Sequence record: MW598459
Reading direction: 5' to 3' (one strand)
DNA from: Escherichia phage vB_EcoM_RZ
DNA length: 64,000 nt
The translations under genes were made by a program, and so were the position numbers. Of the stretch, positions 35,322-47,127 are shown piece after piece. Below the pieces are notes generated by a model that was not told the DNA's origin, ran no database searches, and saw only the letters and a program-made list of their open reading frames with translations. How positions within the stretch are numbered: position 1 is the first letter of the stretch; each line of letters starts with the position of its first letter.

Positions 35322-35322
<1 letters not shown>
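35293..35322 (-). promoter_or_regulatory. Early promoter (-35 GTGTAC, 18 bp, -10 TATGAT)
   Basis: Read on minus strand upstream of regB; leader TATCCCATCAAACAAAAGGAGATAATC. Confidence 0.55.
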
Positions 35323-35901
<579 letters not shown>

Positions 35902-35905
<4 letters not shown>

Positions 35906-36120
35906 TTCACTTCCTCATCAGATGCAGTATCATATTCTACCAAACGAAGGCCATCATATCCGCCACGAACAGAGATATACGTACTCGGATAAACAATTTC
36001 TTTACCATTCCATTGGCCACCGTCCCAACATTCCATAAAGCCTTGTTCGCCCTGTTCATGGAACCAGTCAACAAACAGCTTCAGAGCTTCTTCAGAACCT
36101 TCAATTGTCAATTTAGACAT
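35902..36120 (-). CDS. Hypothetical protein (72 aa)
   Basis: Track ORF. Confidence 0.4.
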
Positions 36121-36409
36121 ATTTTTTCCAATCAGAAATCATATGAATCTCTTGGTCATAAGTCAAGAGACTACGAGTAATAATACCCTTACAAGGCCCA
36201 GAGATGAACTCGAGAGTAAAGTAAGGAACCTGTTTCATTAATCGGATACTTGGAGCATGACATCTAAAACGAGAGCCCTTAAAGGGCCCCGACATGAATA
36301 CATATTCTAATGGATAGAAATAAGCATATTCAAAATTTGTAGTAAGGTCCTCTCTTCGGACCTTACGTGAGAAATAGCAGAACTCAAAAAGTTCTTCATC
36401 AGTCATCAT
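36113..36409 (-). CDS. Hypothetical protein (98 aa)
   Basis: Track ORF. Confidence 0.4.
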   Translation of the reverse strand: MMTDEELFEFCYFSRKVRREDLTTNFEYAYFYPLEYVFMSGPFKGSRFRCHAPSIRLMKQVPYFTLEFISGPCKGIITRSLLTYDQEIHMISDWKKYV

Positions 36410-36933
36410 TGCATTCCTATCACAAAGAACAGTGGCAGAGGTTTAGAACCTTGGCACATAAATTTATTCATCATTGTCTGATAAGCTTCATAGAACTTAT
36501 CCATCGCTGGTAGGCGAATAGGCTCTTCAATAATAATCAATAATCGGGTAACAGACAGTCCACGATATTTGTGAAAATGATCTTCATCTAAAAATGAACG
36601 AACAGTATCATATACAACAAAACCAGGTCGTTCAACATTAAGATGTGGCTGTGCTTTAGAAACCCGCTTTATTATATCACAGATTTCTCGTGAGCGATGC
36701 GAAGAACTCGACATAACAATTACATCATTACCCTTAGAAACCCAATCCGCAGCAAATTGTGCAATGGCACTTGTTTTACCTGTTTGCCTTCCGCCGTCAA
36801 GTCTAAGAGTACCAAACTCTTGCATTCTTGAAGCGGGTTCATACCAGGTGTATTGGTCTGAATCTAAGCGTTCAATGGCGCGTTCAGCGAAGGCGTGCAT
36901 TAAGGTTAGATAAATGGGAGTTAAAAATTTCAT
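36406..36933 (-). CDS. Small P-loop NTPase-like protein (175 aa)
   Basis: Track ORF; Walker A GGRQTGKTSA and Walker B-like LLIIIEEP. Confidence 0.5.
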   Translation of the reverse strand: MKFLTPIYLTLMHAFAERAIERLDSDQYTWYEPASRMQEFGTLRLDGGRQTGKTSAIAQFAADWVSKGNDVIVMSSSSHRSREICDIIKRVSKAQPHLNVERPGFVVYDTVRSFLDEDHFHKYRGLSVTRLLIIIEEPIRLPAMDKFYEAYQTMMNKFMCQGSKPLPLFFVIGMQ

Positions 36934-37093
36934 AGTTGCCTCTTAGTTGTGGGGCCGTTCCTTGGCACATAATTCATCCGTGTATCCGTATGTAAACCCT
37001 TTACCGCACTTGGGCTCGACCTTATTACAGGTAGGGAAAGGTCCATCACTCAGAGGACGCAACGTTCATGAGGAGAGGGTCGGCTTGCCTTTA

Positions 37094-37393
37094 TTAGAAA
37101 GAACCAGAGCCTTTAATTGTGTTCTGGCGACCTTTATTTTCTAATTCAGAATGGTCGATTTCGTATGCTTGTGCTACACCAAAGGCCTTTTTAACTTTAG
37201 CTAAAGAACCTTTAGATGTAACAATATTAAAAGTATTACCTTTGGTAAAATCAACCAAATCAACTTGTACACCCTGTTTACCGAGGCTTGCGACAATAGC
37301 ATCAACATATTGTTGGTCTAAAGTACCTTGGACTCCAATTTGGAATGCTTTAGGGGCTTTGGCTTCTGTGATAAATTCTTGATAAGTTTTCAT
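37094..37393 (-). CDS. Internal protein (IPII/IPIII-like) with capsid targeting sequence
   Basis: Track ORF 37094..37432; ATG at 37393 gives MKTYQEFITEA, the T4 internal-protein leader; located beside denV as ipII is in T4. Confidence 0.7.
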   Translation of the reverse strand: MKTYQEFITEAKAPKAFQIGVQGTLDQQYVDAIVASLGKQGVQVDLVDFTKGNTFNIVTSKGSLAKVKKAFGVAQAYEIDHSELENKGRQNTIKGSGSF

Positions 37394-37441
37394 TTTATAT
37401 TCCATTGTTTGGCTGATAAAATCATTATACAACCTTTTTAG

Positions 37442-37858
37442 TTAAGCGTACACAGCTTTCCCATAGTATTTGTACCAAGCAGGCTTTTGAGAAATTTTCT
37501 CATTCAGTCTGGCTTGACTGATTTCAATTGACCAGATTGATGGTTGATAATCATTCTTCCATTCATCAGGAATATCAGTTAAATCTTGGGTAGAAATATC
37601 TTTTATGTTAAACCCTCGCTTTAAACATTCCGCAATAAGTTCTTGATGCCGGTTTTTAAGGAACAAAAGCTTATCATAAAAGAAGATGACATGACCAGTC
37701 CCTAAAAGGAAAGATGATGGGATTTTAAAGTCAGAAACCTTTTTACCATTTTGTACATGCTTACGAACAGCACCAAACACGCGAGGAAGTTCACGATATT
37801 CAGCCATAAGATGTTGGTCAGCGAGTTCAGATACCAGGGTTAAATTAATGCGAGTCAT
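37442..37858 (-). CDS. denV: Endonuclease V DenV (pyrimidine dimer DNA glycosylase, 138 aa)
   Basis: Track ORF; [35 protein letters not shown] matches T4 DenV from memory. Confidence 0.95.
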
Positions 37859-46973: not shown

Positions 46974-47050
46974 TGGTCGGGGTGGTGGGATTCTAACCCA
47001 CAACCTACGGTTTAGAAGACCGTTGCTCTATACAATTGAGCTACACCCCG
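46974..47050 (-). tRNA. tRNA-Arg (anticodon UCU)
   Basis: Hand-folded cloverleaf: acceptor CGGGGTG/CACCCCG, D-arm GCTC..GAGC, anticodon stem ACGGT/ACCGT with loop CUUCUAA, T-arm GTGGG-TTAGAAT-CCCAC, 3' ACCA encoded. Confidence 0.75.
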
Positions 47051-47127
47051 GGTGGCCCCATCCAGATTTGAACTGGTAACCTTTCCCTTATGAGGGGACT
47101 GCTGCTAACCAATTGAGCTACAGGGCC
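47051..47127 (-). tRNA. tRNA with CAU anticodon (Met or Ile2)
   Basis: Hand-folded: acceptor GGCCCTG/TGGGGCC (two GU pairs), anticodon loop CUCAUAA, T-arm CCAG-TTCAAAT-CTGG; abuts tRNA-Arg. Confidence 0.65.

Follow-up and report, generated by a model that had tools for sequence, protein, structure and literature searches.

What a small stand-alone P-loop NTPase does for a phage, and to which P-loop family it belongs, is the question raised by a gene of Escherichia phage vB_EcoM_RZ (sequence record MW598459), of which a stretch of 64,000 nucleotides (nt), referred to here as the window, was analyzed. A preliminary description made from the sequence alone had placed the open reading frame (ORF) at 36406..36933 in an early accessory operon and had noted Walker motifs and nothing else recognizable in its product, proposing a regulator or a component of defense or counter-defense. 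We find that the source of the window is a T4-like coliphage, that the gene is almost certainly the ortholog of phage T4 vs.8, and that its product is, with equally high confidence, an ASCE P-loop protein that consists of one domain and is homologous to ATPase subdomain I in gp17, the T4 large terminase. The explanation that we favor as a whole, in which this terminase-like Vs.8 ortholog would act early in infection as a decoy, is given a probability of roughly 45%. Directly upstream of the gene lies a second element of interest, a covariation-supported pseudoknotted RNA motif (36949..37096) that appears to be undescribed.

The Vs.8 family and its relation to the terminase ATPase domain

Translation checked against the DNA confirmed an ORF of 175 amino acids (aa) on the minus strand, starting with ATG and carrying Walker A and Walker B at the places given for them before. 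Its structure model shows a confident, compact fold of a single domain without a helical lid. The small stand-alone P-loop NTPase of the preliminary description stands, as a protein with an ASCE NTPase fold. The protein shares 38% identity with T4 Vs.8 over the whole protein and is encoded in the same gene neighborhood; in both phages vs.8 is the first gene of a vs.8-vs.3 string, and both proteins have the Walker A and B motifs, an Arg-Gly (RG) dipeptide, and a G-x-Q C-terminus. PHROG 1488 ("unknown function") matches the window protein with an E value of 3.9e-69 (residues 1-175 on profile positions 1-177), and a hypothetical protein of Escherichia phage pEC-M719-6WT.2 is 100% identical to it. 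Using tblastn, we recovered the vs.8 ortholog from 1006 phage records, at full length in 995 of them, with host labels that are mostly Escherichia, Klebsiella, Shigella, Enterobacter, Yersinia, and Salmonella. Family size is uniform (about 170-190 aa), and nearly all database records label the gene only as "hypothetical protein"; Vs.8 is a known family whose native role remains unsolved, and the window protein is a further member of it.

Alignments of 39 and then 57 cluster representatives, reaching down to 37% identity, both show D46, G48, R49, G52, K53, G125, L132, E137, Y148, P167, F170, G173, and Q175 as invariant, with Q50, R124, P138, and others conserved at 90% or more. Position 136 is D or E in every aligned member, and all aligned members end in ...FFV.G.Q and the stop codon, with residues 168-172 forming a strand in the structure model. 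The signature DGGRQ[TS]GK, R-G, hhhh[DE]EP, PLFFV.G.Q-COOH is complete in the window protein. A lack of Walker motif conservation in homologs had been named as what would speak against the NTPase assignment, and within the Vs.8 family these motifs are invariant or nearly so; only in very distant small relatives are the P-loop lysine and the catalytic glutamate lost. These relatives come from one round of an exhaustive profile search over 1.84 billion representative proteins, which retrieved 66 relatives, all of 90-260 aa. In the most distant ones (E = 1e-8 to 1e-3; those examined were P0080, P0088, P0097, and P0104-P0111) the P-loop reads G-H instead of G-K and D-[C/V]-A replaces [D/E]-E, and because of these losses they are apparently dead ATPases. 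R49, the P-loop arginine, is the sole residue invariant across the whole superfamily, distant relatives included.

T4 Vs.8 is annotated at 216 aa, with 41 extra N-terminal residues compared to the window protein (MRDSRQPVIRSSPSAV...), and in the window the same peptide forms a separate, out-of-frame ORF of 39 aa (36930..37049, minus strand). Because the T4 stretch in question (L001:3881-3994, corresponding to record MT984581.1, 64778-64892) coincides with the RNA element ahead of the gene, and is not in frame in the window, the extension is probably not real; the annotated T4 start is probably too far upstream, its first 38-41 residues being translated RNA element, and the true start is likely the Met of MRTFLTG..., which matches MKFLTP... 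of the window protein. We rejected the 39-aa ORF and the T4 extension as coding sequence, given that the frame is not conserved, that 1-nt indels occur, and that the changes are compensatory in RNA helices. Spurious N-terminal extensions of a like kind were seen on several database homologs. Together, the window ortholog and the family alignment indicate the residues under true constraint and the likely position of the real start codon.

The earlier remark that nothing beyond the Walker motifs is recognizable does not hold, since the protein belongs to a named T4 family and its P-loop family can be assigned. Comparing the Vs.8 family profile with T4 gp17 by hhalign gave a probability of 79% (E = 1.6e-5), with Vs.8 47-146 aligned on gp17 160-265. 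R49, K53, and T54 fall on gp17 R162, K166, and T167 (Walker A against 161-SRQLGKT-167), E136-E137 on D255-E256 (Walker B against 251-MIYIDE-256), and R124-G125 on R245-G246, indicating that the counterpart of Vs.8 in a T4-type large terminase is ATPase subdomain I. The fold is of the ASCE type and closest to solved terminase ATPase domains, and a Foldseek search of predicted viral structures returned similar proteins of ~140-180 aa from many large myoviruses, including jumbo phages, with terminases and encapsidation ATPases as the next-ranking matches. The gp17 match came from profile comparison alone, and BLASTP of the window protein against gp17 detected no similarity. The Pfam model PF03237 (Terminase_6N) scores 14.9 bits (E = 0.022), below its gathering cutoff of 22, and a precomputed PF03237 match is on record for two family members. 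Searches of Pfam, NCBIfam, and PADLOC gave sub-threshold generic P-loop matches at most (AAA_14, Terminase_6N, DinG-like); AAA_14 (16.7 bits, threshold 27) and nSTAND_NTPase5 (14.5 bits, threshold 34) leave the protein outside an AAA+ or STAND assignment. Sequence and profile searches of PDB sequences found nothing significant (a terminase chain at E = 2 only), and no terminase is among the 66 matches over the 1.84 billion representatives, so that the terminase link is not confirmable by plain profile-sequence search.

Vs.8 has in common with terminases a Walker A motif with an in-loop Arg, a Walker B motif with the catalytic Glu, and the Arg-Gly ahead of Walker B. It differs from the RecA1 domains of superfamily 1 and 2 (SF1/SF2) helicases (RecD2, Dda, Mfd, DSH9) in the terminase-like Arg-Gln of its P-loop and R-G ahead of Walker B, and it has neither their second RecA domain nor motifs Ia-VI. 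In other terminases the arginine before Walker B is an arginine finger that acts in trans between subunits, and by analogy R124-G125 is a candidate arginine finger. In contrast to gp17 (610 aa; PDB 2O0H; Pfam Terminase_6N), the 175-aa window protein lacks ATPase subdomain II, the linker, and the RNase H-like nuclease domain. Where gp17 has its IIITTTP coupling motif (282-288; KIIITTTPNG) and continues for ~320 more residues, Vs.8 ends in FFVIGMQ and the stop codon, an equivalence deduced from the order of secondary structure elements and not from a residue-level structural alignment. The adenine-binding Y142-Q143 region of gp17 is not alignable to Vs.8. Furthermore, gp17 is the product of a late gene whereas vs.8 is presumably an early gene, and genes 16 and 17 are not in the 64-kb window and lie elsewhere in T4, far from vs.8.

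Since it retains the terminase-style P-loop, the [D/E]-E of Walker B, and the Arg-Gly, the window protein very probably binds ATP-Mg, and it may hydrolyze ATP, most likely only when oligomerized or bound to a partner. By itself it is unable to translocate or cut DNA, because subdomain II, the linker, and the nuclease domain are lacking.

Possible roles of Vs.8 in phage-host conflict

The early accessory operon of the preliminary description is borne out by the gene order, which by BLASTP against T4 proteins runs, in window order, tk.2, tk.4, vs, vs.1, regB, vs.3, vs.4, vs.5, vs.7, and vs.8, with the internal head protein gene, denV, e, and nudE beyond. From this order and from the overlap between stop and start codons (vs.8 and the next gene share ATGA at 36406..36409), the vs.8 ortholog is the first cistron of a translationally coupled vs.8-vs.7-vs.5-vs.4(Acb2)-vs.3(TadIV-1)-regB string. 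T4 Vs.4 is Acb2, a sponge for cyclic GMP-AMP (cGAMP) (PMC10449767), and T4 Vs.3 is TadIV-1, a sponge for N7-cyclic ADP-ribose (N7-cADPR) that counters the type IV Thoeris signal; in the study of TadIV-1, vs.3-vs.8 were expressed from "the promoter of vs.8" (PMC13243611).

T4 vs.8 itself was picked up in an AlphaFold 3 screen for EcAvs2 ligands, in which it is described as "an uncharacterized ATPase-like protein," a terminase-ATPase homolog with conserved Walker motifs, and is predicted to occupy the EcAvs2 terminase pocket with ATP (bioRxiv 10.64898/2026.04.30.721860). Co-expression of T4 vs.8 and EcAvs2 is toxic, vs.8 triggering this terminase-sensing immune receptor, and the preprint leaves the native role of vs.8 open while suggesting that such activators may be anti-defense proteins (bioRxiv 10.64898/2026.04.30.721860). 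According to the preprint, Ksap1 and Ksap2, the other non-terminase activators of Avs2, are small phage proteins built around a helix-flanked central beta-sheet and, like T4 vs.8, fit the terminase pocket and activate Avs2; terminase sequence homology and conserved Walker motifs are reported for vs.8 alone (bioRxiv 10.64898/2026.04.30.721860). Among Vs.8 proteins, Avs2 activation is reported for that of T4 only, to which the window protein is 38% identical.

Large terminase subunits are the main protein pattern by which Avs- and Upx-type sensors detect tailed phages, and a conserved, presumably early copy of just the recognized ATPase domain, encoded beside two sponges with a proven action on immune signals, readily suggests itself as a means to counter this detection. 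We propose that Vs.8 would be produced early, would resemble the motor domain of the terminase in an ATP-loaded state, and would engage host factors that recognize this domain, above all terminase-sensing receptors of the Avs/Upx type, before the real terminase is made late in infection. Vs.8 would then be a counter-defense decoy or inhibitor, and EcAvs2 a sensor that turned the decoy into a trigger by host counter-adaptation. This role in the conflict with terminase-sensing immunity is held tentatively, as a possibility short of even odds. It is consistent with the Acb2/Vs.4 and TadIV-1/Vs.3 orthologs in the same gene string, and the loss of catalytic residues in distant relatives that retain the fold and the P-loop Arg would fit binding or mimicry better than an enzyme. 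Of the roles first suggested, defense or counter-defense is plausible, given these two orthologs in the operon and the toxicity of T4 vs.8 with EcAvs2, whereas direct evidence for a regulator was not found.

Several observations weigh against a decoy. The sole functional datum, the EcAvs2 toxicity, shows T4 Vs.8 in the role of a trigger, to the disadvantage of the phage, and vs.8 may alternatively be an Achilles' heel exploited by hosts. That the core family so strictly conserves the catalytic Glu and the candidate Arg finger suggests that hydrolysis matters, of which a passive decoy would have no need. Early expression of vs.8 in the window phage is presumed, being carried over from what we take to hold for T4, and the counter-defense activity of Vs.8 is suggested by context and homology.

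The same conservation favors the main alternative, in which the protein would be a functional NTPase with an early role in housekeeping or in takeover of the host, acting on nucleic acid, nucleotides, or a host complex, whose recognition by Avs2 would be accidental, via the shared fold. Sequence divergence of about 60% has left the Lys of Walker A, the [DE]-E of Walker B, and the Arg-Gly unchanged or almost unchanged, about 1000 genomes from several genera carry the gene, many of the tk-vs-regB-denV-e neighbors are metabolic or RNA-processing genes, and similar small proteins are widespread in large myoviruses, including jumbo phages. We nevertheless consider this alternative somewhat unlikely, as the protein has no second domain for substrate binding, no helicase motifs, and no terminase coupling motif, as the catalytic residues are lost in distant relatives, and as its immediate operon partners of known function are immune-evasion sponges.

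Quite improbable is a regulator of the phage's own packaging, that is, a truncated terminase paralogue that binds gp16, gp17, or the portal and modulates or delays assembly of the motor. The homology with the ATPase core of gp17, which extends to the Arg-Gly with its trans role in other terminases, would allow for it, and one ATPase domain alone might in principle enter a terminase ring or cap it; vs.8, however, is part of an early accessory operon remote from genes 16 and 17, and its product is without subdomain II and the C-terminal domain, the parts with which gp17 contacts its partners. The T4 vs genes, moreover, are in our understanding non-essential, and we found no report of a packaging phenotype, the vs.8 literature found being concerned with immunity only. 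A functionless product, be it what is left of a duplicated terminase gene in decay or the result of a wrong ORF call, might be suspected from the "hypothetical protein" labels in nearly all records and the doubtful start codon of the T4 annotation, and is excluded for practical purposes by the conservation pattern (995 of 1006 records full length, with motif-specific purifying selection), next to which stand the translational coupling and the confident compact fold.

The putative RNA element upstream of vs.8

Across genera, the DNA of the element shows 66-84% nucleotide identity to the window, compared to 58-65% for adjacent coding sequence; it is more conserved in nucleotides than the vs.8 coding sequence, and the reading frame through it is not conserved. 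The element is composed of helices H1, H2, H4, P3, H5, and H6 and a pseudoknot, with an almost invariant core, ACCUGUAAUAAGGUCGAGCCCAAGUGCGGUAA, at 37001..37032, whose near-invariant 30-nt pattern is ACCUGUAAUAAGGUC.AGC.C...GCGGUAA. From a plain MAFFT alignment, RNAalifold retrieved no more than P3 and one small hairpin in the core, because indels shift the helices out of register, and the structure was therefore derived by hand from compensatory changes, followed by a covariance model and realignment.

Among 41 distinct sequences that formed the first set, 93.4% of the cells are paired, compared to at most 46% with the partner slid, and in a wider second set, which includes metagenome contigs and divergent copies, 95.0% pair, with slid-partner pairing of at most 49% over both sets; these percentages are inflated by the fitting of the alignments to the covariance model, of which the variety of pair types is independent, and the sequences are phylogenetically related. 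Changes on both sides are found in 13 of 28 pairs in the first set (covariation score of 0.272 versus 0.094 shuffled, reached in 0 of 500 shuffles) and in 18 pairs in the second (0 of 500 shuffles on every measure). H1 alone occurs as AAAGG/CCUUU, GGGAA/UUCCC, AAGC/GCUU, AAAGA/UCUUU, AGCGC/GCGCU, and ACUCC/GGAGU, and the H6 stem as GCCA/UGGC, GGCA/UGCC, CAGCA/UGCUG, and GACA/UGUC. That the structure belongs to the sense strand follows from its G.U pairs. In the pseudoknot, the internal loop of H1 pairs with a segment 8-12 nt downstream of H4 (in the window copy, GCCGA at 37080..37084 with ACGGAU at 36984..36989), and at least 15 different complementary pairs are seen, such as CCG/CGG, CACAC/GUGUG, CGC/GCG, ACCA/UGGU, CUCGA/UCGAG, CCUGA/UCAGG, CCGAA/UUCGG, GACCC/GGGUC, and CCAGC/GCUGG. 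When partners were swapped between sequences, pseudoknot pairing fell from -5.80 kcal/mol (cognate) to -3.89 +/- 0.21 kcal/mol (swapped), with the cognate value reached in 0 of 5000 permutations.

Single-sequence thermodynamics give no support to the element (minimum free energy, MFE, of -38.6 kcal/mol, z = -0.49) and disfavor the comparative structure, the nested part of which evaluates to only -10.4 kcal/mol. In window-type and Enterobacter-phage-type copies, AAAGG occurs twice, at element positions 5-9 (37088..37092) and 95-99 (36998..37002). Both are complementary to CCUUU (positions 56-60), so that two mutually exclusive pairings are possible; the MFE structure uses the second AAAGG, the comparative analysis backs the first, and the alternative pairings could be a conformational switch.

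With respect to its distribution, the covariance model finds the element once in the window (minus strand) and ahead of vs.8 in most T4-like loci, including T4 itself (L001:3851-3977). In some phages, among them some of the Klebsiella type, a copy lies ahead of internal-protein genes, and in others there are two copies in tandem (displaced or tandem copies: L006:812-960 and 1351-1487; L019-L023, ~1930-2095; L026:2221-2340 and 2356-2481; L073; L244); where the full element sits elsewhere (L019-L023), only the last hairpin, H6 (GCCAAGGAAYGGC), stays beside vs.8. Besides the window and T4, 40+ other loci carry the element. Divergent copies, mostly on viral or metagenomic contigs of uncertain type, are located immediately behind the final tRNA in an array of at least 13 tRNAs and followed by an intrinsic terminator (L089:6665-6786), upstream of a tRNA array (L224:1257-1349), between an endolysin gene and a terminator (L093:1844-1962), and on the Pseudomonas megaplasmid pPLMAXa (L170:4493-4619). 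This spread looks more like that of a stable small RNA than that of a vs.8-specific leader. Searching bacterial genomes with the core pattern gave 117 matches, about the number expected by chance by our own estimate, and the megaplasmid copy was the only full match. A possible association with small-terminase genes in non-T4 contigs was dropped, since the proteins encoded downstream have matches to PHROGs of unknown function only. The window has two adjacent tRNA genes, Arg-TCT and Met-CAT (46974..47127, minus strand), ~10 kb upstream in transcription order, and no copy of the element lies beside them.

Compared with known classes, the element has no Rfam match at E <= 1 in window positions 36300..37500 and none at its position in six divergent loci, where only neighboring tRNAs and an intron scored. 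A tRNA or transfer-messenger RNA (tmRNA) can be set aside, as ARAGORN finds nothing at the element, and a resemblance to E. coli tmRNA is unsupported, since blastn detects the element in none of 5,426 E. coli genomes. The core sequence was not found in the literature searched. The PeSL cassettes of T4-type phages (PMC2839356, PMC4122927) are, like the element, conserved intergenic modules of plastic regions that move with genes, and their promoter consensus TTTACW-N17-TAYWAT has a near match in the window copy, TTTACA-N16-AATTAT, because of which the region may also carry a promoter; these promoter-like hexamers are not conserved in T4-type or STML-198-type (Salmonella-phage-type) copies. A simple PeSL would seem a poor fit, as PeSLs consist of one short stem-loop and a promoter, whereas the element is far more complex, with ~100-150 nt, a pseudoknot that covaries, five or six helices, and an invariant core of 30 nt. 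Unlike PeSLs as described, it is also found beside tRNA arrays and in non-T4 contigs.

If confirmed, the RNA would be a new structured RNA family in some of the best-studied phages, ahead of an anti-defense operon, and it is the more novel item compared to the vs.8 gene itself, whose terminase-like nature and triggering of EcAvs2 have already been described for T4 in the preprint. The most far-reaching reading, in which Vs.8 would be an ATP-loaded terminase mimic that occupies Avs- or Upx-type receptors or causes them to assemble wrongly, and the first phage "self-decoy" against pattern-recognition immunity, and the upstream RNA a new phage RNA class (riboswitch, ribozyme, or stable decoy RNA) that controls or accompanies the operon and is found elsewhere in company with internal-protein genes and tRNA arrays, is in our view unlikely.

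Gene neighborhood and feature coordinates

Table 1. Features of the vs.8 locus, with positions in the window
Feature	Position	Strand	Evidence and remarks
Vs.3/TadIV-1 ortholog, anti-type IV Thoeris sponge	35322..35669	minus	70% identity to T4 Vs.3, E = 5e-48; coordinates of the maximal ORF, true start probably internal
Vs.4/Acb2 ortholog, anti-CBASS cyclic-nucleotide sponge	35627..35905	minus	66% identity to T4 Vs.4, E = 4e-39
Vs.7 ortholog	36113..36409	minus	48% identity to T4 Vs.7, BLASTP E = 1e-31; ATGA-coupled to vs.8
vs.8 ortholog, coding sequence	36406..36933	minus	175 aa; single-domain ASCE P-loop protein, resembles large-terminase ATPase domain
Conserved C-terminus P167-LFFVIGM-Q175 and stop	36409..36432	minus	Last beta-strand and G-x-Q
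Walker B L131-LIIIEE-P138	36520..36543	minus	Translation; hydrophobic strand, then [D/E]136 and catalytic E137
R124-G125	36559..36564	minus	Conservation and gp17 alignment; Arg-Gly 12-13 residues before catalytic Glu, candidate arginine finger
Walker A/P-loop D46-GGRQTGKT-S55	36769..36798	minus	Translation checked against DNA; terminase-type Arg-Gln in loop
Shine-Dalgarno AAGAGG	36939..36944	minus	Read from sequence; 5 nt before ATG of vs.8 ortholog
Structured RNA-like element, ~148 nt	36949..37096	minus	Covariance model; from internal-protein stop codon to 15 nt before vs.8 start
Hairpin H6 (GCC-AAGGAAC-GGC)	36954..36966	minus	Compensatory stem variants; just upstream of Shine-Dalgarno
Internal head protein gene, 99 aa (MKTYQEF... 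leader)	37094..37393	minus	PHROG 2667, E = 1.7e-42

The locus differs from that of T4 on both sides of vs.8 (Table 1). Upstream of the RNA element the window has a single internal head protein gene, with denV beyond, whereas T4 has ipIII-ipII-denV and then the element, and vs.6 is, unlike in T4, not in the string. Inside the vs.7 ortholog, ~120 nt past the end of vs.8, we observe a terminator-like hairpin, GGGGCCCTTTAAGGGCTCT, with a T-rich tail (36272..36290, minus strand).

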